DNA of 64,000 nucleotides from a virus (Duplodnaviria; Caudoviricetes). Every line of letters begins with the position of its first letter. The stretch's first letter is position 1. Positions 1,343-64,000 of the stretch are shown here, one piece after another. The notes below the pieces were generated by a model. That model made no database searches and had not been told where the DNA came from. It saw nothing but the letters and a program-made list of their open reading frames with translations. The position numbers and the translations under genes were made by a program. Location: the IMG/VR virus record IMGVR_UViG_3300037297_000386. One strand, 5' to 3'.

Positions 1343-1819
1343 CTATTTTTTGGTAGGAATCAAGAATGCAGTTAAATTTCGTCCATCGAATTCAGACATT
1401 TTATCTACCACTGCTAGATCAGAATTAAGCAATGAATTAATTATAAAATTCATTTTTTCTAAACCAATATCTTTTAATACTATTTGCCTTGCTCTAAATT
1501 GCATAGTTATCTTGGTTTTTAAACCTTTTCCAAGAAATTCTTTAATATGTTTTAATTTTATATCCAAATCGTGTTTGTCTATCGAAGGACCAATTTTAAC
1601 TTCTTTAACTTTATGGGTTCTTCTATGTGATCTTTGTTTCTTTTGGCGTTTCCTCTGTTCATATTTTAATTTGCCGGCATCGACCATCCTATATACATTT
1701 TTGGCCACCATTATAATGCTTTTATTAAATTCTTTAGCCTTTTGTTCTGCAATCTCGATAGACATATTACCAACTTTTCTACCATCTTCTCCAATAAGTA
1801 TGACATTCATATTGTTCAA
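1343..1819 (-). CDS. infC: Translation initiation factor IF-3
   Basis: N-domain VILIGEDGRKVG, linker DAGKLKYEQRKRQK, C-domain KVKEVKIGPSIDKHDLDIKLKHIKEFLGKG..KITMQFRARQ. Confidence 0.92.
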   Translation of the reverse strand: MNNMNVILIGEDGRKVGNMSIEIAEQKAKEFNKSIIMVAKNVYRMVDAGKLKYEQRKRQKKQRSHRRTHKVKEVKIGPSIDKHDLDIKLKHIKEFLGKGLKTKITMQFRARQIVLKDIGLEKMNFIINSLLNSDLAVVDKMSEFDGRNLTAFLIPTKK

Positions 1820-1845
1820 CTTTCTTTTTTAAAGACCCAATAAAC

Positions 1846-2304
1846 TTAATATTCACAAGTCAAGCACTCTTCTCGCATTTTTTTTAATATTTCTATTATT
1901 TTCTTATTATTAGCGCACAACTTTCTTATCTTCTTTAAAGCCCCTCCGTATCGCTTTTTTTGATTATTATAGTCTATATTACCCTGAAGTATTTTATGTA
2001 TAGTAGTCTGATGTTTTCCAAGTTCACTCGATATCTCGTTTTGAGTCTTACCTTCTAAATACGTCATTTTCATTACTTCTTTTTGTTTATCAGTAAGACA
2101 GTTTTCTACCACATACATTACCTCACTAAGTAATTCATTTCTAAGTTTTTGAAATTCTTCAGAACATGATTGAGTAGATAAAAAAGCACTCATTCCTTCT
2201 TCATTAGAAAAATTATTAAGCAAATTAGGATCAATACTTATTTCTACATAGTTATTAGAAATATCTGGGTCCCCCGAACTACTACAGGTAAAATTTTTTG
2301 GCAT
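1846..2304 (-). CDS. Sigma-70 region 4-like HTH protein
   Basis: LTDKQKEVMKMTYLEGKTQNEISSELGKHQTTIHKIL matches region 4 HTH; no region 2. Confidence 0.75.
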   Translation of the reverse strand: MPKNFTCSSSGDPDISNNYVEISIDPNLLNNFSNEEGMSAFLSTQSCSEEFQKLRNELLSEVMYVVENCLTDKQKEVMKMTYLEGKTQNEISSELGKHQTTIHKILQGNIDYNNQKKRYGGALKKIRKLCANNKKIIEILKKMREECLTCEY

Positions 2305-46002: not shown

Positions 46003-46149
46003 TTATTTCTTTTTAGTGGACTTAGATGTCTTGGCAGGCTTTATCGTCTCTTTAACGGTAGTACTTTTATGTTTATCTGAATATTTTTTTGTAACAAATT
46101 TACCAGTCTTGGCACTTCTATATATTATTCCTGTTTTTGTTTTTGGCAT
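46003..46149 (-). CDS. 48-aa very basic protein (RSAKTGKFVTKKY motif)
   Basis: RBS GGAG before MPKTKTG. Confidence 0.65.
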   Translation of the reverse strand: MPKTKTGIIYRSAKTGKFVTKKYSDKHKSTTVKETIKPAKTSKSTKKK

Positions 46150-46318
46150 ATTAATTTCTCCTAAATAATAATTTGTTGTCGCCACTATAGGGCTGTTTTT
46201 AAGTAATGATCGACTAAGTTTTTTAAATTGAGAAAATTTCTCGACACCCTCGAAAAGTTTAATTGCTTCTGGTTCTTGTGCGAATGAATGTTTGATCATA
46301 TGAGACTTCCTGTCAATA

Positions 46319-48164: not shown

Positions 48165-48611
48165 TTATCTTTTTCTTTTGGGATCAATACTGGCCTTAAT
48201 CCACTCCTCTTTAGTTAATTTCTGTCCATTCAAGTACCAATACTTAGCACCATTAGGATATTCAATAGCAGGACCATCTTCACGATGAAGCTTTCCATCC
48301 AAGTACCAATACTTAGTACCATCGGAATATTCAACAGCGGGACCGTCTTCGCGGTGACGTCTTCCATTAAGGTACCAATACTTAGTACCATCGGAATATT
48401 CAATAGCAGGACCGTTTTTACGATGGTATTGGCCATTCAAATACCAATACTTAGTACCATCTGTATATTTAATGATATAGGTTCCAATTTCAACATCAAG
48501 TGGTTCTATTGTAATAGGATTTCCATATTCATCTTGCCAGTGGATCTCATTTCTTGTTTTAGTGGTAAGACCTGCTAACAGGGCAGTATAAGCATTGTGT
48601 AAAATAGTCAT
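48165..48611 (-). CDS. Leader plus HREDGPA beta-repeat protein
   Basis: Leader LHNAYTALLAGLTTKTRNEIHW; three 23-aa HRxDGPAIEYxxGxKYWYLNG repeats. Confidence 0.85.
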   Translation of the reverse strand: MTILHNAYTALLAGLTTKTRNEIHWQDEYGNPITIEPLDVEIGTYIIKYTDGTKYWYLNGQYHRKNGPAIEYSDGTKYWYLNGRRHREDGPAVEYSDGTKYWYLDGKLHREDGPAIEYPNGAKYWYLNGQKLTKEEWIKASIDPKRKR

Positions 48612-48686
48612 TTTATCCTTATATTATTTATCTTTAAAAATTTATTAGCGATAAAAATATTAATAATTTACAAAATTTAAAAATAA

Positions 48687-49124
48687 TTATGTTTTACTAG
48701 TGCGTGTCTTAATCCACTCTTCTTTAGTTAATTTCTGTCCATTTAAATACCAATACTCAGAACCATTAGGATATTTAATAGCAGGACCATCTTTGCGATG
48801 AAGCTTTCCATTCAAGTACCAATACTTAGCACCATCATAATATTCAACAGCAGGGCCATTTTCACGGTGAAGGTCCCCGTTCAAATACCAATGTTTAGTA
48901 CCATTGGAATATTCAACAGCAGGGCCATTTTCACGGTGAAGGTCCCCGTTCAAATACCAATGTTTAGTACCATTGAAATATTTGAAGATATAAGTCCCAA
49001 GTTTAATATCAAGTGGTTCTACTGTAATAGGATTTCCATATTCATCTTGCCAATGAATCTCATTTCCTGTTTTGGTAGTAAGTCCTGCTAACAGAGCAGT
49101 ATAAGCATCATGCAATAAACTCAT
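48687..49124 (-). CDS. Leader plus HREDGPA beta-repeat protein
   Basis: Start MSLLHDAY; two repeat units identical over 66 bp (48841-48906, 48910-48975). Confidence 0.85.
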   Translation of the reverse strand: MSLLHDAYTALLAGLTTKTGNEIHWQDEYGNPITVEPLDIKLGTYIFKYFNGTKHWYLNGDLHRENGPAVEYSNGTKHWYLNGDLHRENGPAVEYYDGAKYWYLNGKLHRKDGPAIKYPNGSEYWYLNGQKLTKEEWIKTRTSKT

Positions 49125-49474
49125 TCTATTCGTTTTCCATGTTCCCATTCTTCTTCCGAATATTTCCGTCCATTTTTATACCAACAAGTAGTTTTACCAT
49201 GTTGTTGCCCATCTTGCCATTCTTTTTCCCAATGTTTTTGTCCGTTCCTATACCATCTGATATATTTACCATGAAGTTGGCCATTTTGATATTCTGATTC
49301 CCAATATTTTTGCCCATTCCTATGATAATAACGAATAATATATCTCTCTTGTTTAATATCAATTAATTTTATCGTAATGGGAATACCATATTTATCTTGC
49401 CAATAAATCTCACTTCCTGTCTTACATGTTAATCCTGCTAGAAGAGCAGTATAAGCATCGTGTAATAGTGCCAT
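49121..49474 (-). CDS. Leader plus MORN-variant (YwqK-like) repeat protein
   Basis: HGKYIRWYRNGQKHWEKEWQDG. Confidence 0.85.
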   Translation of the reverse strand: MALLHDAYTALLAGLTCKTGSEIYWQDKYGIPITIKLIDIKQERYIIRYYHRNGQKYWESEYQNGQLHGKYIRWYRNGQKHWEKEWQDGQQHGKTTCWYKNGRKYSEEEWEHGKRIE

Positions 49475-49908
49475 TACTTCTTCCCTATTAAATTATTAAA
49501 CTCTTCTTCGGTCAAGTGTTTGCCATTTAGGAACCATGCTTTGGTACCATCTGCCCACACAACAGCAGGACCATCTTCACGATGTAGTTTGCCATTTAGG
49601 AACCAGTATTTGTCGCCACCTGCATATTCAATAGCATGGCCATCTTCACGATGTGGTTCACCATTTATACACCATGCTTTAGTACCATCTACCCGTATAG
49701 CAGCAGGACCGTCTTCGCGGTGAAGCTTATCATTCAAGTACCAAAACTTATCACCACCAACATACCTAACAATATAGGTACTAATTTTAATATCAAGTGG
49801 TTCGACAGTGATAAGTTTTCCACTTTTATCTTCCCAATTAATCTCATTTCCTGTTTTGGTAGTAAGTCCTGCTAATAGGGCAGCGTAAGCATCATGTAAT
49901 AGTGTCAT
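49474..49908 (-). CDS. Leader plus HREDGPA beta-repeat protein
   Basis: Leader and three repeats. Confidence 0.85.
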   Translation of the reverse strand: MTLLHDAYAALLAGLTTKTGNEINWEDKSGKLITVEPLDIKISTYIVRYVGGDKFWYLNDKLHREDGPAAIRVDGTKAWCINGEPHREDGHAIEYAGGDKYWFLNGKLHREDGPAVVWADGTKAWFLNGKHLTEEEFNNLIGKK

Positions 49909-50076
49909 GGTAATTTACCTATGTATTTTAAACCCATTTTAAATGACAAAAGAACTTTTAATTAATATTTATTTTGTACTATAAAATATAATAATTTTAA
50001 ATAAAATCTTAATACCATATTTTTATTATTGTTTTTCGTAATTCATCCGTTTTTAGCAATGAGTTTGACATTCTGT

Positions 50077-50346
50077 TTACCAAGCCACCTCTTGTCCATT
50101 TGGGCTATACCAACGAAGTACGCAACCTCTAACTCCAGGAGCAGGAACGCAGTGAACTACCTTATCTTTATCTACGATGCGATGAGTGGTTCCTCTCTCG
50201 CGAAAAAATAATCGCTGTGGATTATTAATACGATATGTATGCCGTTGTCCAGCATCTTCCCATTCATATTCTCGCCATTGTTCGTCTGAAACATCGTAAG
50301 GTCCTAATAACTCTCCACTTCTGTCTTCATGTGATTGTGTAGTCAT
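50077..50346 (-). CDS. Hypothetical protein
   Basis: RBS AAGGAG; visibly GC-richer than flanks. Confidence 0.65.
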   Translation of the reverse strand: MTTQSHEDRSGELLGPYDVSDEQWREYEWEDAGQRHTYRINNPQRLFFRERGTTHRIVDKDKVVHCVPAPGVRGCVLRWYSPNGQEVAW

Positions 50347-50371
50347 AACAATCTCCTTTCAAAATTTAATA

Positions 50372-50518
50372 CTAGTTTTTTAAAGTAAATAATAAATGAA
50401 ACAATTTTGTATCAATTGCTAATCTAATATCTCTTTTGCCAAACTCATTGCTTCGTGCGAGAACTGAAAACAAATGAATATGAAAAAATTTATTATTTAT
50501 TTCGAAATGTGGTTTCAT
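50372..50518 (-). CDS. 48-aa protein MKPHFEINNKFF..., copy 2
   Basis: Paralogue of 45149-45307; not in ORF track. Confidence 0.75.
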   Translation of the reverse strand: MKPHFEINNKFFHIHLFSVLARSNEFGKRDIRLAIDTKLFHLLFTLKN

Positions 50519-50586
50519 ATTAATATTAATTTCCTATTTTTTATATTTCTTAATAGCAATTAATGTTTTTATATCAGTTGGTTATT

Positions 50587-50991
50587 TTAATATTCATATT
50601 CGTTCTCTTTTTTACCATTTTTAGACCACCAAATATATTTACCATATAGTCTTCCATTTTGATATTCGTATTCATATTCTTTGTTACCGTTCTCATACCA
50701 ACCAATGTATTTACCATGGGGTTTTCCACTTTGATATTCGTATTCGAAACTTTTCTCGCCGTTTTTATATCGACCAACGCCTTTACCATGACGTTTATCA
50801 TTTTGATATTCTATTTTATGTTCAACTTGTCTGTTTGGATAATAATATCTGACAATGTATCTACACTTTTTTATATCAATCGGTTCTACTGTAATTAGAT
50901 TTCCGTTTTCGTCATTCCAATGTATTTCGTTTCCAGTTTTATAAGTTAGGCCAGATAGCAAGGCTGTATAAGCGTCATGTAGCAAGTTCAT
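50587..50991 (-). CDS. Leader plus MORN-variant repeat protein
   Basis: Ends at TAA where paralogues have CAA (YQN). Confidence 0.85.
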   Translation of the reverse strand: MNLLHDAYTALLSGLTYKTGNEIHWNDENGNLITVEPIDIKKCRYIVRYYYPNRQVEHKIEYQNDKRHGKGVGRYKNGEKSFEYEYQSGKPHGKYIGWYENGNKEYEYEYQNGRLYGKYIWWSKNGKKENEYEY

Positions 50992-51483
50992 AATAATTTT
51001 CCATCTTGATATTCACCTTCATATTCTTTATTGCCGTTCTTATGCCAATTAATACTTTTGCCATGGTGTTTTCCATATTGATATTCACCTTCAAACATTT
51101 TTGGTGCCATTTTTATACCAGCTAATATATTTACCATGTAGTTTTCCGTTTTGGTATTCTCTTTCGAATTTTTTATTACCATTTCCGTACCATCTAATGC
51201 TTTTACCATGGCGTTTTCCGTTTTGATATTCATTTTCGAACTCTTTATTACCATTCGCATACCAAGCAATACTTTTGCCATGGTATTTTTCGTTTTGATA
51301 TTCCATTTCATGTTCAACTTGTCTATTTGAATAATAATATTTGACAATATATCTACACTTTTCTATATCAACTGGTTCTACTGTAATAGGATTTCCATAT
51401 TCATCCTTCCAATGTATTTCGTTTCCAGTTTTGTAAGTTAGACCAGACAATAAAGCGGTATAAGCGTCATGTAGCAAACTCAT
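50988..51483 (-). pseudogene. Leader plus MORN-variant gene with +1 frameshift
   Basis: Extra base in T5 run 51098-51102 splits it into track ORFs 51091-51483 and 50988-51347. Confidence 0.75.
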
Positions 51484-51830
51484 AATAATTTTCCATTTTG
51501 ATATTTGTGTTCATATGCTTTATTACCGTTTTCATACCAATAAATATTTTTACCATGTAGTTTTCCGTTTTGGTATTTTGCTTCGAACCATTTATTGCCG
51601 CTTTCATACCAATTAATGCTTTTACCATGACGTTTTCCGTTTTGGTATTCTGTTTCCCAATGTTTTTGCCCATTTTTAAAATACCTACGAATAATGTATT
51701 TATTTTGATTAATATCAATTGGTTCTATTGTAATGGGATTTCCGTTTTTGTCATTCCAATGTATTTCGTTTCCAGTTTTGTAAGTTAGACCAGATAGTAA
51801 GGCGGTATAAACGTCATGTAGCAAACTCAT
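51480..51830 (-). CDS. Leader plus MORN-variant repeat protein, intact
   Basis: Ends YQNGKLL with ATGA overlap. Confidence 0.85.
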   Translation of the reverse strand: MSLLHDVYTALLSGLTYKTGNEIHWNDKNGNPITIEPIDINQNKYIIRRYFKNGQKHWETEYQNGKRHGKSINWYESGNKWFEAKYQNGKLHGKNIYWYENGNKAYEHKYQNGKLL

Positions 51831-52536
51831 AATAATTTTCCATCTTGATATTTGTATTCATGTGCTTTATCGCCGTTCTCATACCAATCAATGATTTTGC
51901 CATGGTACTCCGTTTTGGTATTCACTTTTCGAATCTTTTCTTGCCGCTTTCATACCAATCAATGTTCTTGCCATGGGGATTTCCATCTTGATATTTGCGC
52001 TCATATTTTTTTTTGCCATTCTCATACCAACCGATGTTTTTACCATGTGGCATTCCGTTTTGATATTCGCCTTCGAACTCTTTATTACCATTCCAATACC
52101 AACCAATATATTTACCATGTAGACTTCCGTTTTGATATTCGCATTCATATTCTTTGTTACCGTTTTTATACCAACCAATGAACTTACCATGTAGTCTTCC
52201 GTTTTGATATTTATTTTCACATTTTTTCTTGCCATCTTTATACCAACTAATGGTTTTGCCATGACGTTTTCCGTTTTGGTATTTTCTTTCAAATCTTTTC
52301 TTGCCGCTTTCATACCAATCAATGTTCTTGCCATGGTATTTTTCGTTTTGATATTCTGTTTCATGTTTAATTTGGCTGTTTGAATAATAATATCTAACGA
52401 TATATCTATATTTTACTGTATCAATCGGTTCTACTGTAATGGAGTTTCCGCTTTCATCCTTCCAATGTATTTCATTTCCAGTTTTGTAAGTCAGACCAGA
52501 TAGTAAGGCGGTATAAGCGTCATGTAACAGATTCAT
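51827..52536 (-). pseudogene. Longest leader plus MORN-variant gene, 3' frameshifts
   Basis: Intact to 51922; extra base at T4 51926-51929 and a nearby 2-nt deletion precede a normal ...YQDGKLL end. Confidence 0.75.
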
Positions 52537-52991
52537 AATAATTTTCCACCTTGATATTCGTGTTCATATCCTTTATTGACACTCTCGTACCAACTAATGG
52601 TTTTACCATTTAGTCTCCCATTTTGGTATTCATTTTCGAACCATTTAGTCTCCCATTTTGGTATTCATTTTCGAACCATTTATTGCCGTTTTTGTACCAA
52701 CCAATGTATTTACCATGTAATTTTCCGTTTTGGTATTTTGCTTCGAACCATTTATTGCCGTTCTCGTACCACCTAATGACTTTTGCCATGGTATTTTTCA
52801 TCTTGGCATTCTATTCTATATTCAACTTGTCTATTTGGATAATAAGATTTGACAATATATTTGCATTTTTCTATATCGACTAATTCTATTGTAATAGGAT
52901 TTCCGATTTTATCCTTCCAGTGTATTTCATTTCCAGTTTTATAAGTTAGGCCGGATAATAAAGCGGTATAAGCGTCATGTAACAAATTCAT
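52533..52991 (-). pseudogene. Leader plus MORN-variant gene with frameshift and 35-bp tandem duplication
   Basis: Extra base at T4 52781-52784; exact 35-bp duplication 52605-52639/52640-52674. Confidence 0.8.
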
Positions 52992-53005
52992 AATAATTTT
53001 CCATT

Positions 53006-53482
53006 TTAATATTTTTCTTCAAACCTTTTATTGCCGTTTTTGTACCAACCAATGTATTTGCCATGGAGCTGTCCGTTCTGATATTCTGCTTCGAACTCTT
53101 TATTGCCATTCTCGTACCAACTAATACTTTTACCGTGGCGTTTTCCATTTTTGTATTCACCTTCGAATATTTTATTGCCATTCTCATACCAACCGGTATT
53201 TTTACCATGTGGTATTCCATTCTGATATTCGCCTTCGAATTCTTTATTGCCATTCCAGTACCAACCAATGTATTTGCCATGTAGTTTTCCGTTTTGATAT
53301 TCTATTTCATGTTCAACTTGTCTATTTGGATAATAAGATTTAACGATATATCTACACTTTTCTATATCAACTGGTTCTACTGTAATGGGATTTCCATTTT
53401 CGTCATTCCAATGTATTTCGTTTCCAGTTTTATAAGTTAGGCCAGATAGCAAGGCTGTATAAGCATCGTGTAACAAATTCAT
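53006..53482 (-). CDS. Leader plus MORN-variant repeat protein
   Basis: Start MNLLHD at 53482; TAT-TAA-AAT stop replaces YQN. Confidence 0.85.
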   Translation of the reverse strand: MNLLHDAYTALLSGLTYKTGNEIHWNDENGNPITVEPVDIEKCRYIVKSYYPNRQVEHEIEYQNGKLHGKYIGWYWNGNKEFEGEYQNGIPHGKNTGWYENGNKIFEGEYKNGKRHGKSISWYENGNKEFEAEYQNGQLHGKYIGWYKNGNKRFEEKY

Positions 53483-53964
53483 AATAATTTTCCATCTCGA
53501 TATTTGCATTCATATCTTTTATTACCGTTTTCATACCAACCAATGTATTTACCATGGCGTTTCCCGTCTTGGTATTCACTTTCGCGGTATTTATTACCAT
53601 TTTCGTACCAGTTAATGTTTTTACCATGTGGCATTCCGTTTTGATATTCTTTTTTGAAATATTTCTGTCCACTCTCATACCAACCAATATATTTGCCATG
53701 TAGTCTTCCATTTTGATATTCTTCTTCAAATCTTTTATTGCCGTTTTCGTACCAACCAATACATTTACCATGGCATTTCTCGTCTTGATATTCACTTTCC
53801 CAACATTTTGCCCCATTTTTAAAATATTTACGAATAATGTATTTATTATTAATTGGTTCTATTGTAATTGGATTTCCATATTCGTCCTTCCAATATATTT
53901 CATTTCTGATTTTATAAGTTAGACCAGATAATAAAGCGGTATAGGCGTCATGTAATAAATTCAT
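53479..53964 (-). CDS. Leader plus MORN-variant repeat protein, intact
   Basis: First gene of the 50.6-54.0 kb tandem block. Confidence 0.85.
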   Translation of the reverse strand: MNLLHDAYTALLSGLTYKIRNEIYWKDEYGNPITIEPINNKYIIRKYFKNGAKCWESEYQDEKCHGKCIGWYENGNKRFEEEYQNGRLHGKYIGWYESGQKYFKKEYQNGMPHGKNINWYENGNKYRESEYQDGKRHGKYIGWYENGNKRYECKYRDGKLL

Positions 53965-54145
53965 TTTATTTTCAATTTTTCTATTTTTTTAATTTTTATT
54001 TTTTAATAATTTATACACTTTATAGGATGACACATTATAATTTTTTTTGGTTAATATTTTTCCACAAAGTGACATTTTTTGTATTTCTTTCTACTCTGAC
54101 ATTCAACACCGATCGTTTTATCCTTTTGGTTCTCATAGAAATTTA

Positions 54146-54159
54146 TCGGGGAAAGTAGG
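54146..54159 (-). repeat. Right copy of 14-bp inverted pair (TCGGGGAAAGTAGG on + strand)
   Basis: Reverse complement of 47017-47030; intergenic. Confidence 0.6.
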
Positions 54160-54182
54160 ACAAATCTTTTTTATTAAATTTA

Positions 54183-54638
54183 TTAATTATTTTTATTTAT
54201 TTCATATATACAATATGCAGAAGTTTCTTTTATTATCTTATATGGTAAATAAACTAAATACTGATGCACACCATATTTTGTAGTATAATCTTTTTTAATA
54301 TCCCGCCTGACTGTTATATATATTTTGCCAGATTTATTTATCAAACCTTTTAATTTATTTATTACTGCTCGTCGTTTATTAATATTGACAACATTTAAAA
54401 CATAAGAACATAATACAATATCATATTTTTTATCTAATAAATTTTTAGTAGGATTCCAATATGGATCATAGCCATTAGCATTATAATTATTTAATTGTAG
54501 CCAGGTGTAATCTGTTCCTCTTCCACAACCAAAATCTAAAATTTTATCGTCTTTATTTATTTTGTTATCATTGATTAATATGCGAAGCGGTAAGGATGGC
54601 CGTTTTCTTACAATTGCGGTTTTGTATGAATTATTCAT
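54183..54638 (-). CDS. Class I SAM-dependent methyltransferase
   Basis: ILDFGCGRGTD, GYDPY, YDIVLCSYVLNVV, VRRD. Confidence 0.85.
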   Translation of the reverse strand: MNNSYKTAIVRKRPSLPLRILINDNKINKDDKILDFGCGRGTDYTWLQLNNYNANGYDPYWNPTKNLLDKKYDIVLCSYVLNVVNINKRRAVINKLKGLINKSGKIYITVRRDIKKDYTTKYGVHQYLVYLPYKIIKETSAYCIYEINKNN

Positions 54639-54804
54639 GGTCGGATTTAATCTCTTTAATATTTAATATTTTAAATGCTTTCTTTCGTAGCATATTACAG
54701 ATTTTTTGCCAATGTTTTTCACAAAGTCCGCGCCCAAGATACACTATATCAGAATCCCTTCCGCATTTTTTATATTGACATTTATTTTCTATATCAGTTA
54801 ACAT
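54631..54804 (-). CDS. 57-aa Cys/His protein
   Basis: Hand-translated MLTDIENKCQYKKCGRDSDIVYLGRGLCEKHWQKIC... Confidence 0.55.
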   Translation of the reverse strand: MLTDIENKCQYKKCGRDSDIVYLGRGLCEKHWQKICNMLRKKAFKILNIKEIKSDHE

Positions 54805-55194
54805 TATTATATTTCCTATTGACTTGGCATCAAATAATAATTAGTCCAATAATGTGGTATATATGTATTATCATTAAAAATGACTCTAATTAAGTAACCT
54901 TGTTTACCACAATTTGTTATTTTTTCTATGCTAATTCTTTCATTTAATATATCATTATACAGATAAAATACAAAAATATTCATATTTTTGTTTTTACAAA
55001 AACTCTTCATTATCATAAAAAGTACCAATACAAATTATTCTTCCATCATACACTTTAATAAGATATTTGGTTGTATAAAATGAATCGTAATTACGATGTT
55101 TAATAGTAATTATATTATTCTTATATTTTACATTTCTGTTACAATTTAATATATTTTGATATAAATGTTTAAGAGTTCCGTTCATTTTGATATT

Positions 55195-55437
55195 TTAATT
55201 ATTTTCAAATGGTGCATCTTCTTCATATTCATAATCTTCATATTGATTAACCCTGGCAAGATATTCTATTACAGTTTCCATTTTATCTGTGAGTGCCATA
55301 TTAACTAAAACATTTGCAACATCGGCTGGTATATTCTCATCTACCAACCTGGTATTTCCATTCTCTTTAATTCGATATAAACAAAATCTGCCACTTTTAA
55401 ATGATAACATAAAATCATCATATAAATCTAAATCCAT
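55195..55437 (-). CDS. Hypothetical acidic protein
   Basis: RBS AGGAG; unrelated to array families. Confidence 0.6.
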   Translation of the reverse strand: MDLDLYDDFMLSFKSGRFCLYRIKENGNTRLVDENIPADVANVLVNMALTDKMETVIEYLARVNQYEDYEYEEDAPFENN

Positions 55438-55917
55438 AATTGATACTCCTTTATTAAAAAAATTAAATTATTAAAATCTTATGAATTTAACCGTCCCAAT
55501 TGATTTTATACATTCTTCAATTATATAACGATTTTCTACCACATGTTGTGGCCACAGGACATAACTTTTAATAATAATTACATTCTCTTTTTGTTTAATC
55601 TGCCATTTTGGATTAAAGAAACATCCATATATAAAAATTATATTCTTATTTATCAATTTATTTACTCTTTCGTATGTTGATAGGATTACCATAAGAAATT
55701 GGTCTTATATCTTTACCCATTATATATCGATCTTCTGCTATATAACCGTATATATAATATGGACTTTTAATAGTAATAATACCATTCTTTTGTTTAACTA
55801 TCCCATCTTTATATAATAAAGAACTATATATATGTCTTATACTTGGATTCATTTTAAACATACTATATAATTTCCACTATTCGCAAAGGAATAATTGTAA
55901 TTAATTTATTATCTATA

Positions 55918-56103
55918 TCAATAAAATATTTCACGATATTTATATCCATCTTTATAATATCTTACAATATATCTTTTCTTTTTAATATCTATTGGTTCTA
56001 ATGTAATAGGATTTCCAATTTTATCATGCCAATGAATTTCATTACCTGTTTTATAAGTGATACCAGACAGTAAGGCCACATAAGCATCATATAATAAATT
56101 CAT
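55918..56103 (-). CDS. Leader-only member of the LLHDAY family
   Basis: MNLLYDAYVALLSGITYKTGNEIHW...; no repeats. Confidence 0.75.
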   Translation of the reverse strand: MNLLYDAYVALLSGITYKTGNEIHWHDKIGNPITLEPIDIKKKRYIVRYYKDGYKYREIFY

Positions 56104-57045
56104 CTTAAATCCAAAAAACTTCTTTAGAATAATATCTTTCTAAAAAATTATTTTAGTTTTTGAATGTCATCTCTCATAAAGATTATTTTACCAACATCTT
56201 TGTCAATTAAATAATGATCTATATATTTATAATCACCATTGTAACGACGGTAATAAGTTTTGATGACAATTATTGTATCTTTTTGACTTACCGTGATTCT
56301 TGTGGTATAGACAGGCATTGAGATATATAAATCTACAATTTCAAGATCCATTAATATATTCCTATATTTTATCAATTTTATTGGTTATATAAATTATTTT
56401 TCCTAATTTTTTATTAATTGAATAATAATTTGTAAAAAAGTATTTATGATTATTAGCAAATGTAGTTTTTATTATAATAGAATTATTTTTTTGATTAACA
56501 TCACTTTTAGAATATAATAATATATTATATAAATTTACTATATTACTATTCATTTTTCTTTTTCCAATACTATATTTTCATTTTTTAAACAATTTGGACA
56601 ACACCAATTTACGATAATTATATCGCCTTCTTAATTTATATATATTACCCTATTACTTTTATCAATTATAAAATATGTTATATATTCCGAAATTAATTTT
56701 ATTATTAAATACTATTACCATATTTTTTATAGTAACAGTATTGTTTGTTTAAACAATACTACTATTAAGATATAAATATTCTTTATATAAATATAGAATT
56801 TCTTTACTAATTTCTATTATACATTTTTCATACCCGAAGATGCCATATAAATTTTATTTTTTATTCTATCAATTATATAATTACAATAAAATTTATATTG
56901 AAAACAATACCATTTTATGGTTATTATATTATTGCATTGATATATATTCATTGTATCTCTTTGGATACTTAATATAGTTTGATATAATCTATAAATATTT
57001 GTTGTCGTATCCATTCTAAAAATCCATTATTCTAATATGAGATAT

Positions 57046-57303
57046 TTATTTTCTTGGAAAATATTTATATCTTGCTGTAATCATCCATAATATAAATTGC
57101 AAAATGTAACTGGATAATAAAGCCGAATCCCATCCAATTTCTGATATTACATAAATTGTCATTAGGACAAATCCAACCAATAATGTCCAAATTAATATAT
57201 GTGATATACCCTGTGAATGCCCATCTCTTATCGACTTGACTACTTGTCCTACTGTTGCTAATATAAATAATATAGAAGCTATTATTCCAAAATATTTAAT
57301 CAT
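57046..57303 (-). CDS. PQ-loop/SemiSWEET-like three-TM protein
   Basis: GIIASILF...GQVVKSIRDGHSQGIS, three TM segments. Confidence 0.7.
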   Translation of the reverse strand: MIKYFGIIASILFILATVGQVVKSIRDGHSQGISHILIWTLLVGFVLMTIYVISEIGWDSALLSSYILQFILWMITARYKYFPRK

Positions 57304-58492
57304 TATTTAATATTGAAGCAGTTTTAACTGTTAAACCTCATTATTCCTTGGCCATTTCACTATTGTTATAAGATATATAACCGTAAAGTTCATTAATTAA
57401 ATAATAATCTGTGAATTTAAAAATATTATTGTTGTAAAAATATCTTACAATAATTAAATTATTATCTTGTCTTAAATCTCTATTAAAATATAATTTTGCC
57501 ATATATAGATATATAATTGTATTATCAATTTTACTATATAACATTTTTAATTACCATGATATTCTGCTCTCGGTCTTTATAAAAATAATATTACCTTTTA
57601 TTCCGTTGATAAAATAATAATATATAAACTTATGGTGATTAAAAGGGCGACTCTCAATACTAATTATATTATTTCTTTGGAGAGCATTTCGTTCAAAATG
57701 CAAAAGATTCCGATACAAATGCCATATATTATTATCTATTAAAGTTCGGATTATCATAATTTACATCTCTATCAATATAAAATATTTGGCCCATTTTTGT
57801 AACCGAATAATAATTAATAAGTTTGTACTTATAGTCATAATTATAACTTGATGTTATAATCATATTATCTTTTTGATTTATATCGCTTTTAAAATATAAA
57901 ATATCTTTATATAAACTATACATAGTATAAGTCATTATTTTAATCACCACAATTTTTTTCTTACACTTCCCTTGTATATTATTTTTCCTGTTTCCTGAAC
58001 AATAGAATAATAGATTCTAAATTCATAATTAAAACCGTTAGTTTTTATAGTAATCAAATTGTTTGTTTGATTTATTTTTCGTTTAAAACACAATATATAT
58101 TTATATAAGGTAACAATATTATTGTTCATGATATTTTTAATACTATATTTGAGAATTCCTATATATGATCTTATAATGTCATAAGAAGGATTAATTGTAT
58201 TTGTTCTCCACTAATAATTTTAAAAAGAGATAAAGATTTGATTTGAATATATTGGAGCCCACAGGCATAGCATATAATGTATTATATTATGACTAAACCA
58301 ATATGAATATTCAATAATTTTTCTATCATTCTTTAATATTTCTATATATAATTTAAATAAATTAGGCTTCTTCATATTTTTATCATTCGTGTAAACAAAT
58401 ATGTATTATCGTATTATATTCTTTTCTAATATTTATACCCAAATATAGCTAAATCTATTAATATTTTATAAAATTATTTTAAGGAAACCCTA

Positions 58493-58654
58493 ATGATCAA
58501 GTCCACTAAGTTATCTACAAAATTTACCAACAAAATCAAACTGGATAATTTAAACTTGTTCATCGACGAATATCGTCGGGTAGTTTCCCAATTCGTAGAT
58601 ATCCTTTGGCCTCAAGATAAAATCCCAAAACTATTACCTAAAGCCACAATCTAA
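58493..58654 (+). pseudogene. tnpB: TnpB N-terminal remnant (53 aa)
   Basis: RBS AAGGA then MIKSTKLSTKFTNKIKLDNLNLFIDEYRRVVSQFVDILW...IPKLLPK, a pattern recalled from TnpB N-termini; lies antisense to the array. Confidence 0.65.
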
Positions 58655-59294
58655 TGTCTCCATAATTTTATCAAATCGCTCAAATATGGCATTTAAGTCT
58701 ATATTATTATGCATTTTTGATTTCCTTTCATTGCTGACGCTCCAACAAATAGATATGCATTATATGATGGTGGTGGTAAATAGATTAGATATGAATCATC
58801 GTAAAGTGATGGATTATATATTATGTCAACTTTCATATTATATTTAAGTATACCTATGTATAATTTTAAAATATTTTGTGGTATATCAGAAATCAAATCT
58901 TGTTCCATTGTATTTACCATAAATAAATATATGTATGCGGATGCAATAAGCAAATTAAATATAGACCATTAAATCCAAACGGATTATATATTCCATTAAC
59001 TTTCATATTATGCACAAGAACTCCGATATATAATTTTAATATATTTTGTTTTAAACTATTTTGTAATATATTAGAAATCATATTTTTCAACTTATTTGCC
59101 TTATAAATAAACATATATATCATATTTTGGATGCGGTAAAATAATTATATATGGGCTACCAACCAAAAATGGATTTTTATATGCCTTCGGAATTTTTATA
59201 TTATATGTAAGCACATTGATATATAGTTTTGTAATATCGTATGAAATATTAATAACCTTTCTTTTTTATTCTTTTATAAAATTGAATTAAAATA

Positions 59295-59738
59295 TTATTT
59301 ATTTATAATTTTCCCGTCTTTATATTTTCCTTCTGAATATTTAATGCCATTTCTATCCCAATTAATAAACTTACCATTAAGGTTGTTATCTTGATATTCT
59401 AATTCACATTGTTTATTGCCATTTTCATACCAGACAATGGATTTGCCATTAAGTTTCCCTTTTTTATGTTCCTGTTCCCATTTTTTATTACCACTTGTAT
59501 ACCAATCAGCAGATTTACCATGAAGTCTTTCTTTCTGATATTTATATTTAAATTTCTTATTACCATTTGAATAATAATATCTGACGATATATTTGCACTT
59601 TTTTATATTAATCGGTTCTACTGTAATAGGATTTCCGTTTTCGTCCTTCCAATGTATTTTATTTCCAGTTTTATAAGTTAGACCAGACAATAAGGCTGCA
59701 TAAGCGTCATGTAATATAGTCACTATTAATTTCTCCAT
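59295..59738 (-). CDS. Leader plus MORN-variant repeat protein
   Basis: ILHDAYAALLSGLTYKTGNKIHW; four repeats. Confidence 0.85.
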   Translation of the reverse strand: MEKLIVTILHDAYAALLSGLTYKTGNKIHWKDENGNPITVEPINIKKCKYIVRYYYSNGNKKFKYKYQKERLHGKSADWYTSGNKKWEQEHKKGKLNGKSIVWYENGNKQCELEYQDNNLNGKFINWDRNGIKYSEGKYKDGKIINK

Positions 59739-62474
59739 AAATATTTTAGCAAATAAATAAACTTTGAGATGCTGACTACCAAGATTTTCAAGATAAAAAA
59801 CATAATATTTTTCATTCGGAAAGAATAAATAGGATGTCTTAATGATTATTCCGTTATTTTTTAATATTTCTATGTAGAATAAATATAATAATCCAAGTAA
59901 TGCTTCTACTGTATAATTTTTCGATTTAAAATTTTATACACACATTATTCTTGTATTTGAATATACTGCCACCCATAACATTCAAGAAAAATAGCATAAA
60001 ATACAGCATTATCCGTTTTTTATATACTTATAATATAAATATCTTCTACTAATTTTTATATTAAATTTTAATATAAAACAATATAAATTACATATATCAT
60101 ATGGAATAATTTTTTTCATTATCTGTTTAAATTTTTTTCTGTTATAAAAAAATATTTATTTCATTTGAATATGGTCCACAACTTAAATATACAATATAGA
60201 CATCTACATGAAGTTCTAAATCACGGATTTTCCAATTATCCCTTAATACTTTAAGATATAATGAATATATATTATGTGAAATTTTATTCATAAATTTGTA
60301 TCTTATCATTTTAATTGTTTTAATTTAATATATAAATGGCCAAAGTCCTTAAAATAAATACCATAATATCTTGTATCAAAAGTACAAAAACACTTTGTTC
60401 CAACAATTTCCCAATTTTTTCCCAACATTCCAATATACAATATTCTTACAGTATGTAAATTATTCATAAAATTAAAAAACTCCAAATTAATTTTTTATTA
60501 TTAAGAATATATATTTAAACATAATTTACCTATAATTTTAGATATATAAATCTTGGGTCCCCAGATGGGCCGAATTCTAAATATATAACCCGAAAGTTAT
60601 TTTTATCAAAACGTATATTTTTTTTATTAGTAGAAACAATCTTTCTTTTTTCATTAAGAATATAATGATATAATTTGCTTATATTAAATTGGACACCATT
60701 CACATTTCAGCCACTTTCTTTTAGTGTAATATTTTCCAAATCTGTATCCATAAAAACTACTTATTCATCACTTGACCACAGACAAACATATGGTGTATGA
60801 TCTGATTTTATTGGATATGGATAATTTGACACATAAATGTTATAATAAATTCGATCATTAAATTTCGACTGTCTAATTTCGACAGTTTTTCTACTATATT
60901 TAAGTATCGTGATATACAACTTGTAAATTCTCCATGAAATATTATGAAACACAAATTTCTCCATTATATTTGTTGATCATATAAATATATATATACAATA
61001 CTTTTATTCGTTTGATGTTTTAAATGAATTATGTATGGATTATTGGACAAAAAATTTGTTCTATATGTAGCACTAACTATTCTATTTTCTTTAAGTATTA
61101 CGATATATAATCTAATTAAATTACTTGCAAAATTTCTATTCATAATTTCTTTACCGCCCGTCGTCTCGCAAATAAATAACATAATTATATCGTAAAGATG
61201 GTTTATGAGAAAGATAAATGGCATAGATCTTAATTCCAATAGAGAGATAAATTCTAGATATATCTATAACTCTATTTTTACCATTCAATAGAAGACCATA
61301 TAACTCAATTATCTTATTAGACATATTCTTATTCAAAACCTAATATAAATAAAGTTTAAGACATTCAGAAACAGTGCCATCCATAGGAAGGCAAAAAACA
61401 TAAATATATATACCATTAGGAGAACGGTAACGATATGTATCAACAATTTCCTTATTTCTCTTTAAAAAACTAAAATATAATAATTTTAAATCTAAATAAA
61501 TCATATTACCCACAAAAAATATTTCCCGTTAATATAAATTTAAATAAAGCGTAAAATGTTTAAGACATTTTACATGAATGCAATATCTTTTGTCATTTTC
61601 ATGCCAAGATGTCCCAATAATTTTTCCATTACTCTTTAATATTTTAATATAGAATATTTTTAAGTCCCAAGAAATATTATACATTTTATTTAATGATTAT
61701 CTATTTTTATATCTATTGAACAAATAATATGGGCCAGAATATGAATACGACGTTAAGTAAACAAGATAAAATTCAATATTGTAATCAGAATAAATTGGGC
61801 ATGTTCTTACTATTTTACAATTTTCTTTTAATATTTGAATATATAATTTAGACAAATCATATGGACTGGTTTTTTTCATTTGACATTCACTTTTGAAGGC
61901 ACTCAATTTTCATTCTCCCATAAATAAATTTTTTCGTAAAGACTATATCCCATTCCTGATTCCAAATAACCAATACTAAATTTTGTATTATATGAATAAT
62001 GAAATTCGTGAATATCAGTAACCTTTCCATTATTTTTTAATAATGCAATATATAATTTAATTAGGTTATGTGAAGATTCATTCATATATTTCTTGCAAAT
62101 AAATAAATATATTCAGGATAATATCCTGGCCTTTCAATAGTAATGATACGATAAAGTAATGAAGCGGATGTAAATTGTGGCACTAATGTGATTTTTTTAT
62201 TACTTGTTAATATTCTTATATATAATCTGTATAAATCACTAGTCATGATTCATCACCATAGCGGTAACCATCTGGACAATTTTACTTTGATTTCTTTGTT
62301 ATCCACACGTATATAAATTCGCTGAAAGCATGCGCATCTTAGGTTCTTTTATAAAAAAGTATAATATTTTAAATTTTTACATGGTGAATAAATAGGATAT
62401 GCATCAACAATTTTCTTATTTCTTTTCAATATTTTAATATAAAGTTCAAACAAATTATTAACCATATTTATTTC

Positions 62475-62867
62475 TTAATAATTGTCGTTACTCACAAATT
62501 GAATAAAAGTTTGTAATTTAGCTTTGCCAATTGAACCTATTTTGTTTTCAATTTTTTGGCGCATTTCCAAATCAGAAACGTCTGGAATAATCCCAACGAC
62601 TCCATCATTAAGATCAACCATAGTAACACCCACAATAACATCGGCACTATTAGCATCTTCATCAGAAAAATAATATCGAGTTGATTCTAATACAACTTTT
62701 TCTTTGCCATATGCATACCCGAACTTATTATAAACTTTATTAAACAAATCGCCTTTATTGGGGTCAATATCCAACTGTTTAGCTAAATCCTTTATTTTCA
62801 TTCTTAATCCTCGAACAACGAATGATGAACTTGAACTGTTACTAACAAAACCTTGTCTAATCTTCAT
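62475..62867 (-). CDS. MKIRQGFVSNSSSSSF-family protein
   Basis: N-terminal motif. Confidence 0.75.
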   Translation of the reverse strand: MKIRQGFVSNSSSSSFVVRGLRMKIKDLAKQLDIDPNKGDLFNKVYNKFGYAYGKEKVVLESTRYYFSDEDANSADVIVGVTMVDLNDGVVGIIPDVSDLEMRQKIENKIGSIGKAKLQTFIQFVSNDNY

Positions 62868-64000
62868 TATTTACCCTTTAATTTTTAAAATGGCCTAATA
62901 ATATCCTCTACGCTACCCACCTGGACCATCGAGGATCGTTATAATTATATTCAATACAATATTATCATTCATATTTTAACCTTACTATGGATTTTATTAT
63001 CATTAATTCGTAAGAAAACACTTTCAATATGATCGTGCCATGAACATTTCAGATAAAATGCATGATAATTATAACCACCATAAGGTGAGGACCATATATC
63101 TGCTTTAATAATTTTTCTACCGTTAAACAGTAAAGTATATAGAAGAATTATATTATTATCGATAGCCATATCCATTTTTATATTGAATTTTTTATTTTTA
63201 TCAAATATGTGATCTTTTTGAACGCAAATATGTTGAACTTGGAGAATCCAAAATAATATAATATAAAAAAATTAGGGAAAAATTTCATACTTATCACTTT
63301 TCCATTAAAAATAAGCAATTCAATATATAATCTATAAATATTTAATTCAAGTGATATTATATCTTTATTCATTAAAATATGTCTTGCCCTATATAAATGA
63401 TAATTTCTGGTGATAAACGGATACAATATATAAAATCGTCGTCGCTCCATGGTGGCGGATTTTCGACAATTTTATTGTTATGTTTAAGTAATGATATATA
63501 TAGATCGGATATTTTAATTGACATATTATAAAATATATCCTTTATTTTATTGGCATGCAACAATAGTGAACAACACCATTTCCTGGTTTTTTAGTAATAA
63601 TGTTGCAATATTATACATTTGTTCCTATTTATGTCCATAAATGGATTATAAGAACATCTACCGGGTGTGAGATTTTTAACCATACGCTATAGAATACCAT
63701 ATTACTAATGTAACAGTAATTATAAGATGATTTTATAACTTTTCCGTTTTTATATAATATTTCTATATATAATCTATAAACATCACATGAAACCATTATT
63801 TATAATTTTTCCTATTATCTTTTATTGTATAGATGAATAAATGCGATATTATTAGGATTTGGATATAATAAATGAATAACGTACATATGCGTATTATCAA
63901 TAACAGAATAATTTTCACTCATTCTAATAATTTTTAATTTATTTTTTAATATTACATTATATAATTGTAATAATTCAGGTACTATATTGACTTCATACAT

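Follow-up and report, generated by a model that had tools for sequence, protein, structure and literature searches.

Tandem families of diverged paralogues are a familiar feature of large eukaryotic viruses. The multigene families MGF100, MGF110, MGF360 and MGF505 of African swine fever virus (ASFV), the terminal families of poxviruses and the repeat-protein expansions of giant viruses lie in accessory regions, vary in copy number, and contain broken copies as well as conserved orthologues. In jumbo phages, our search of the literature for tandem small-gene families found only the paralogous head and inner-body proteins of phiKZ (gp92-97, 153, 162 and 163; PF12699), several of which are dispensable (10.1101/2025.11.23.690004). 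In this study, we analyzed Array B, a run of very small genes at one end of a 64,000-nucleotide stretch of phage DNA (IMG/VR record IMGVR_UViG_3300037297_000386; the whole stretch is called the window below). We found that Array B can safely be called a new, lineage-restricted mini-protein family, which expanded in tandem long ago and has been kept under selection.

Gene content and coding character of Array B

We read the Array B genes stop to stop on the minus strand, aligned the copies, and built a family hidden Markov model (HMM). We identified 23 copies in window 58220-64000 and one helix-only N-terminal fragment (Table 1). The shared pattern is (N/D)(I/L)xxLYIxILKxNxK(I/V), followed by YxIxL and then by (I/V)YL. 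An earlier note on this DNA had described about 23 open reading frames (ORFs) with a common motif, and both the copy count and the motif agree with our results. The family proteins have 50-65 residues and are mostly basic. The pairwise identity among the window copies is 14-37%. Among 83 copies, the tyrosine of the LY pair is invariant, and the two flanking leucines are 93-98% conserved.

The earlier note had also placed the end of the array outside the window, and a contig from Logan (L001, 10,452 bp) bears this out. It is 100% identical to window 58620-64000, runs 5,071 bp further, and carries eight additional B-type copies, giving at least 31 copies in the array. Outward from the window edge, this contig contains the eight copies and a 123-aa (amino-acid) gene, tRNA-Pro and tRNA-Ser genes, a Zn-ribbon gene, a MORN gene, and five copies of a third mini-protein subtype (subtype C). 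The genes are packed head to tail on one strand, with a median gap of 11 nucleotides (nt); 69% of the gaps are 20 nt or shorter, and 18% of the genes overlap. The array is interrupted by a 130-aa gene, a MORN-variant gene and a 323-nt gap, and four window copies (6, 18, 19 and 20) are decayed.

Re-calling of ORFs across the array revealed 44 stop-to-stop ORFs of at least 45 aa on the gene strand, which together take up 86% of its length. By the same criterion, 200 shuffles gave a mean of 8.6 ORFs and 16% coverage, and the opposite strand gave 20 ORFs and 34% coverage. The ORF excess, far above chance, is thus on the gene strand only. The family HMM had no match at E<0.01 in the remaining 54 kb of the window, its array matches were on the gene strand only, and in 28 unrelated phage loci it gave one marginal match (E 0.003). 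In 27 of 33 copies of this phage and in 56 of 61 copies of a related phage described below, an ATG precedes the LY motif by 3-25 codons, most often by 7-8 or 12. In most copies, this ATG directly follows the preceding in-frame stop. Shine-Dalgarno-like motifs of at least 4 nt were found upstream of ~30% of the copies, compared with 10% of random positions.

We then considered whether the periodic motif is a DNA or RNA element (promoters, iterons or repeats) in which the ORFs are incidental. The region is AT-rich with many promoter-like hexamers, and a TATA-like sequence lies within the helix-coding stretch. However, promoter-like sites in the array are not above the shuffles (124 versus 111 +/- 12), nor are terminator-like sites, and the ORF excess is strand-specific. 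The conserved residues are written with varied synonymous codons. Leu14, which is 98% conserved, uses TTA, CTT, TTG, CTG, CTC and CTA, indicating that the amino acid is conserved and not the DNA, and both tyrosine codons are used for the invariant tyrosine of LY. DNA identity between copies is just 65-70% and is restricted to the helix-coding stretch. In the helix, the proportion of synonymous differences (pS) is 0.48 versus 0.18 for nonsynonymous differences (pN). The alignment also yields a confident fold. An incidental origin of the ORFs is thus already contradicted by the codon-level data and has next to no probability. Judged from the sequence, the Array B copies are protein-coding genes, not DNA repeats. 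Ten copies were too short for the initial ORF track, so gene callers that drop short ORFs, and family databases, may miss such arrays.

Predicted fold and search for described families

The fold was modelled with AlphaFold2 for two copies. With 29 sequences, copy 9 was predicted as a helix followed by a three-strand antiparallel meander, at a predicted local distance difference test score (pLDDT) of 74.5. With 83 sequences, copy 2 gave the same topology at pLDDT 89.8 and a predicted template modelling score of 0.68, with the helix at residues 4-15 and the strands at 19-28, 33-42 and 47-54. In the predicted fold, the helix is amphipathic and packs on the sheet. Both models match the fixed helix and three strands that the earlier note had proposed. 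The conserved columns are L6, L9, Y10, I11, I13, L14, N17, K19, I/V20, Y36, I38, L40, I51, Y52 and L53; these ~15 positions are expected to form the hydrophobic core between helix and sheet.

The remaining columns have an entropy of 3-4 bits (83 copies), and both hairpin tips vary in length. The earlier note's picture of two free variable loops needs correction, since the variable positions are mostly solvent-facing strand positions, together with the two hairpin tips. Alternate strand positions, which are expected to point away from the helix, often carry isoleucine, tyrosine or tryptophan. This outer face of the sheet is semi-conserved and aromatic (Ile/Tyr/Tyr/Trp), and, as judged from the residue pattern, it is probably buried as well, either against another copy or against a partner common to the copies. 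A homodimer prediction scored 0.01, but the same model folded the single chain poorly, so this score counts neither for nor against self-association.

No family was identified in Pfam, PHROGs, PADLOC, NCBIfam or the PDB sequences. PHROGs gave nothing below E 0.029 and no recurrent match, and PADLOC gave just three single matches at chance level. Foldseek searches against PDB, BFVD and the AFDB clusters found nothing at E <=0.001, and the ESM Atlas feature search gave no usable match. These results are in line with the earlier note, which knew of no phage family of such size and form.

An exhaustive structure aligner, which itself cautions that Z <8 may reflect a common arrangement only, ranked glyoxalase half-modules (Z 5.7) and HicA chains highest: 4p78_D at Z 5.1 (root-mean-square deviation, rmsd, 1.9 over 46 residues), 6g26_E at Z 4.9 and 1whz at Z 4.8. 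The ESM Atlas likewise gave a TM score of 0.73 to glyoxalase half-domains. HicA, dsRBD-like domains and the VOC half-module share with Array B a helix on a three-strand antiparallel sheet of equal size (Z 4.8-5.7, rmsd ~2 A, 43-47 residues). HicA, however, has an alpha-beta-beta-beta-alpha fold with a C-terminal helix and a catalytic histidine, and VOC proteins have paired beta-alpha-beta-beta-beta modules with a first strand and metal ligands; the Array B proteins have none of these additional elements. We rejected the HicA toxin (PF07927) as an assignment. Its profile gave no match at E <=1 in 83 copies, the family profile found no HicA chain among the PDB sequences, and the model ends after strand 3 with no conserved histidine column; the Z of 5.1 alone is inconclusive. 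The glyoxalase/bleomycin-resistance/VOC family (PF00903) was rejected as well, since the Array B protein is a single module lacking the first strand and without a Pfam match, and the scores concern half-modules only.

This likeness bears on one alternative for the function, in which the products are small nucleic-acid-binding proteins (RNA or DNA regulators, or RNA-directed effectors) that bind in a dsRBD- or HicA-like manner through the exposed, aromatic and basic face of the sheet. The alpha-beta-beta-beta topology is that of HicA minus its last helix, the median isoelectric point (pI) is 9.2 with 80% of the copies above pI 8, and tyrosine (10.4% of residues) and tryptophan recur at alternate strand positions. 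However, the HicA score is under the caution line and glyoxalase half-modules score alike, Pfam has no HicA match in the 83 copies, and there is no invariant histidine or second helix. Moreover, a basic composition is expected from AT-rich DNA, and a need for 30-60 distinct copies is hard to explain. We regard nucleic-acid binding as unlikely.

Two other small-protein groups lie nearby, namely Array A, which flanks Array B inside the window, and subtype C. Proteins of subtype C have ~55 aa and the pattern IxxIYxxxL...NxIIL...GxxW, with five copies in each of the two phages (L001:235-1529 and L031:1934-2959). Profile comparison with hhalign aligned B with C at E 1.2e-4 (probability 55%) and B with A at E 2.2e-4 (probability 45%), in both cases over the first 32 columns only; A against C reached a probability of 17%. 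The 45-aa leader of the MORN-variant (YwqK-like) proteins was tried as kin of the mini-proteins and rejected (hhalign probability <1% against subfamilies A, B and C).

The part that is weakly common to the three groups is the N-terminal helix with the first strand. It could serve as a sorting or assembly tag with the remainder as variable cargo, making these proteins virion-carried or ejected. Jumbo phages such as phiKZ do have paralogous head proteins, some of which are injected (10.1101/2025.11.23.690004). In the model, however, the helix forms the core of the fold and is not a detachable tag, no cleavage motif is evident, and the MORN leaders have no profile similarity to the family. The array also lies among accessory genes, distant from the head genes. 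A role in the virion appears quite unlikely.

Related phage, selection and age of the copies

A profile search over 1.84 billion representative proteins (E <=0.001) returned 47 matches. Nineteen of them are proteins of this phage, most of the others belong to one related phage, and the rest come from three short contigs with 1-5 copies each (one from marine sediment, two from metagenomes of the JGI). Additional homologue searches with the family profiles found only proteins of this phage and its relative, and scans of IMG/VR and JGI metagenomes by exact 48-mer, by the 123-aa array gene and by motif alignment found no relatives. On the contig from marine sediment, a 104-aa protein (L037:408-722) carries two family domains as a fusion, and two more weak copies lie beside it within 911 bp. 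This indicates that the family also exists outside wetlands and can form tandem-domain proteins.

The related phage was assembled in several runs (L030-L036), and one of its contigs was found in 16 samples. Its locus is collinear with the window array at 68-77% nucleotide identity. The relative's array has 61 HMM matches over ~14 kb, and a clear start was identified for 55; this phage has 33 HMM matches. The relative also carries subtype C copies and the Zn-ribbon gene. We found 28 reciprocal-best orthologue pairs in the same order in both phages, with 47-72% amino-acid identity.

Selection was estimated from these 28 pairs by the pooled-site Nei-Gojobori method (NG86), which is crude; synonymous sites are near saturation. 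The ratio of nonsynonymous to synonymous rates (dN/dS) was 0.42 overall, with 0.27 in the helix, 0.37 in the strands, and 0.61 in loops and termini. The two pairs with a ratio near 1 involve fragments. The closest paralogues within the genome had pS 0.36-0.7, with a ratio of 0.14 at core positions and 0.4-0.7 elsewhere. Since synonymous sites are saturated even in the closest paralogues, the variability reflects old divergence under relaxed constraint. We also looked for the signature of a diversity-generating retroelement, a near-identical template/variable repeat pair. Window 54000-64000 has no long repeats of near identity, its best repeat families reaching 65-80%; no search was made for a reverse transcriptase. 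The earlier note had called the loops hypervariable and proposed to compare selection in loop and core. In the sense of ongoing diversification, the collinear orthologues and their dN/dS values do not support that description; loops and termini are less constrained than the helix but gave no signal of positive selection.

In the maximum-likelihood tree, copies of both phages pair one-to-one, often with 99-100% support, and 23 inner branches are strongly supported. One clade unites 3 copies of this phage with 13 of the relative, suggesting that gains or losses are lineage-specific. The decayed copies, the gene-sized gaps and the unequal copy numbers point to birth-and-death evolution, which the earlier note had read from the decayed copies. 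These sequence comparisons show that most copies predate the split of this phage from its relative and that each has been kept since then by purifying selection. Copies are still gained, lost and broken.

We also weighed a largely neutral or selfish expansion, in which duplicates of a dispensable small gene persist without distinct functions. Several copies are broken, gene-sized gaps occur, copy number differs two-fold between the relatives, and small genes of phiKZ are mostly non-essential in laboratory conditions (10.1101/2025.11.23.690004). However, dN/dS is 0.42 overall and 0.14-0.27 in the core, start positions are conserved, and one-to-one orthologues have been retained over ~30% nucleotide divergence. 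These observations make a neutral origin very unlikely.

Possible function, genomic setting and comparison with known systems

For the function of Array B, the best fit is a binder repertoire with specific host targets, and we favor it with a little less than even confidence. The proposal is drawn only from form and setting, namely a small, rigid scaffold whose surfaces are free, variants that number in the dozens and are each conserved, and an accessory region rich in paralogue families. The genes would be co-transcribed and translated as separate small proteins; co-transcription is suggested by the tight packing and by promoter- and terminator-like sites being no commoner than in shuffles. 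The small proteins would then be binders on one common scaffold, each with a surface for a different target, and the outer aromatic face would probably pair with another copy or a common partner. The targets would most likely be host proteins, either defence or toxin effectors or targets of host takeover. In its full form, the proposal credits huge phages with 30-60 mini-binders that are germline-encoded, share one alpha-beta3 scaffold of 55 residues, and are tuned copy by copy to different host targets (defence, toxin or takeover). We consider this form possible, if on the doubtful side.

Several observations weigh against a binder repertoire. The proteins have no likeness to known anti-defence, immunity or inhibitor families in Pfam, PHROGs, PADLOC or NCBIfam (no dedicated anti-defence library was searched). 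Shine-Dalgarno-like motifs of at least 4 nt are scarcer than in core genes (30% versus 62%). No site class has dN/dS >1 in orthologues or close paralogues, although this test is weak with synonymous sites near saturation. The long-term conservation of one-to-one orthologues fits stable, housekeeping-like roles equally well as counter-defence. Finally, the low GC content of the region, 24%, accounts in part for the basic pI and the richness in Ile, Tyr, Asn and Lys.

The window proteins belong to a 311,797-bp contig, which indicates a phage of ~312 kb, and a wetland metagenome DNA run, possibly the source, is the only sequencing run that contains the window stretch; no RNA run was listed for it. 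The minus strand carries all long ORFs of the window, and the genes include a DnaE-type polymerase (<=33% identity to any deposited phage), SbcCD, GroEL and a tail fibre. No similar DNA was found among GenBank phages for Array B or the tail-fibre gene. Across window 54-64 kb, GC drops from ~30% to 21-26%. Array B is surrounded by other paralogue families (Array A, MORN-leader genes, subtype C) and tRNA genes. Inside the window, its flank is Array A (54816-58129, ~11 copies), followed by a methyltransferase and then by ~12 MORN-leader genes. The features of Array B are listed in Table 1.

Table 1. Features of Array B and the adjoining methyltransferase gene, in window coordinates (L031, contig of the related phage)
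Feature	Coordinates	Strand	Remarks
Copy 1	63815-64000	-	61 aa, intact, ATG at 64000; relative keeps only a fragment
Copy 2	63629-63796	-	55 aa, intact; modelled at pLDDT 89.8; orthologue L031 7454-7621, 56% identity
Copy 3	63372-63524	-	50 aa, ATG 63524; orthologue L031 8093-8242, 70% identity
Copy 4	63178-63372	-	64 aa, ATG 63372; start shares 1 nt with stop of copy 3
Copy 5	62969-63169	-	66 aa, divergent, long C-terminal tail; no reciprocal-best orthologue
Unrelated gene starting MKIRQGFVSNSSSSSF	62475-62867	-	130 aa; interrupts array
Copy 6	62349-62465	-	decayed: premature TAA after 38 codons; remaining frame in 62253-62348
Copy 7	62082-62246	-	54 aa; orthologue L031 8493-8648
Copy 8	61903-62085	-	60 aa; ATGA overlap with copy 7; orthologue L031 8648-8818
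Copy 9	61697-61879	-	60 aa; first copy modelled (pLDDT 74.5); orthologue L031 8828-9016
Copy 10	61529-61684	-	51 aa; orthologue L031 9031-9186
Copy 11	61340-61504	-	54 aa, ATG 61504; no reciprocal-best orthologue
Copy 12	61151-61324	-	57 aa, ATG 61324; orthologue L031 9192-9374
Copy 13	60964-61143	-	59 aa, ATG 61143; orthologue L031 9382-9549
Copy 14	60761-60964	-	67 aa; orthologue L031 9561-9746, 63% identity
Copy 15	60530-60703	-	57 aa, GTG start; orthologue L031 9936-10112
Copy 16	60306-60467	-	53 aa, ATG 60467; orthologue L031 10490-10645, 70% identity
Copy 17	60142-60291	-	49 aa from ATG 60291, 55 aa from ATG 60309; orthologue L031 10881-11039
Copy 18	60009-60119	-	decayed: 36 codons, rest in other frame (59926-60027); orthologue in relative intact, 57 aa
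Copy 19	59739-59933	-	no ATG/GTG/TTG before helix; in frame into MORN-variant gene; orthologue L031 11898-12080 has ATG
MORN-variant repeat gene	59295-59738	-	147 aa; within array; Pfam MORN_2 E 1e-4, below cut-off
Copy 20	59101-59265	-	54 codons, no ATG/GTG/TTG before helix; orthologue L031 15207-15371 has ATG
Copy 21	58914-59081	-	55 aa, ATG 59081
Copy 22	58699-58908	-	69 aa, ATG 58908; orthologue L031 12663-12818
Gap, 323 nt	58376-58698	.	remnant of Cys-rich gene and 53-codon plus-strand ORF
Copy 23	58220-58375	-	51 aa, last full copy; orthologue L031 13550-13699, 69% identity
Helix-only B-type fragment	58130-58210	-	HMM E 1e-3; in frame upstream of first Array A gene (57944-58129)
Methyltransf_23-type methyltransferase	54183-54638		adjoins arrays

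The MKIRQGFVSNSSSSSF gene that interrupts the array has no Pfam or NCBIfam match and is absent from the ORFs listed for the array region of the relative. In IMG/VR, 26 phage loci carry relatives of it, which match mostly over the N-terminal 20-40 residues. The leader of the MORN-variant gene is common to ~12 paralogues at 48165-56139. Copy 19 together with this gene (59295-59933) may be a fusion with a non-standard start codon; otherwise, copy 19 is dead. In the gap before copy 23, a Cys-rich gene with 74 intact codons in the relative (L031 12822-13043) retains 41 codons (58634-58759, minus strand). The plus-strand ORF of 53 codons (58493-58654) has no match in Pfam, NCBIfam or a tblastn search of GenBank phages. 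A likeness to the N-terminus of TnpB was considered, but the same searches did not support it and we do not claim it. The truncated Cys-rich gene and the plus-strand ORF (58376-58760) may together be an insertion scar.

The tRNA-Ser(GCT) and tRNA-Pro(TGG) genes are located at L001:2399-2580, ~2.4-2.6 kb past the window end, with the first B-type copy on one side and the Zn-ribbon gene on the other; no tRNA gene lies in the window. Within Array A, we observed an 85-aa membrane-like protein (57046-57303) whose match to PQ-loop is weak (E 3.7e-4) and narrowly misses the Pfam cut-off. An unrelated metagenome contig (L040) carries a methyltransferase similar to that of the window (1496-1954) and an HNH gene beside a single family member, and the presence of the methyltransferase near the family in both places hints at a conserved neighborhood.

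Directly downstream of its array, the relative carries a Cas3 gene (HD, DEAD/ResIII and Cas3 C-terminal domains; 819 aa) and then a Cas7fv-like gene (L030:8976-12532). Huge phages are known to carry type I variants (PMC7162821). At the matching place, the window has Array A, the methyltransferase and the MORN-leader genes. A small gene starting MIKHSFAQEPEA is located at window 46003-46299, ~8.5 kb beyond Array A, and in the relative at L030:8668-8949, just before Cas3. It marks the point where the accessory regions of both genomes rejoin.

Among bacterial systems, the EsaG/DUF600 proteins beside EsaD in Staphylococcus aureus are comparable to a binder repertoire, as many small paralogous binders are encoded next to one another, each presumably directed against a variant effector that it neutralises. 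EsaG was also the top Foldseek row from the PDB for both models (8guo_B, E 0.07 and 0.38, TM 0.43), which is not significant, and there was no Pfam match. However, EsaG arrays are bacterial and have the cognate toxin gene adjacent, whereas no toxin gene was seen beside Array B. Affimer/Adhiron (cystatin-like) scaffolds also place a helix on an antiparallel sheet, with specificity in hairpin loops, a likeness of design and not of descent. They are engineered, have four strands and ~90 aa, and their sole Foldseek row (5ohl_F, E 0.81) is no match.

Phage anti-defence loci, such as those for anti-CRISPR proteins, resemble Array B in being clusters of small accessory proteins of no known family. 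They differ in that known loci contain a few unrelated genes, often with a helix-turn-helix regulator, and not 30-60 paralogues. The phiKZ head family consists of large virion proteins, few in number and without a uniform tandem array, and Array B has no Pfam match. If the Array B proteins are indeed target-specific mini-binders, they would form the largest single-scaffold repertoire in a phage known to us. They would supply natural inhibitors ready-made, each of which would indicate a host function that has to be neutralised by the phage, and protein engineering would gain a scaffold that is very small and evolvable. In that case, Array B would be the phage counterpart of the multigene families with which large viruses of eukaryotes evade immunity, and a naturally occurring analogue of engineered two-loop binder scaffolds.

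Even apart from its function, the array shows that huge phages can build families of dozens of members and keep them long-term, a pattern described to date mainly for large eukaryotic viruses. It shares the traits of tandem multigene families, in kind and not by homology: many head-to-tail paralogues lie on one strand, and copy number and pseudogenes change between related viruses (33 versus 61 HMM matches, with 28 shared pairs). The families of ASFV, poxviruses and giant viruses, however, belong to eukaryotic viruses and encode larger proteins with unrelated folds, whereas the units of Array B have 50-65 aa, number up to ~55-60 in 14 kb, and are found in a phage.

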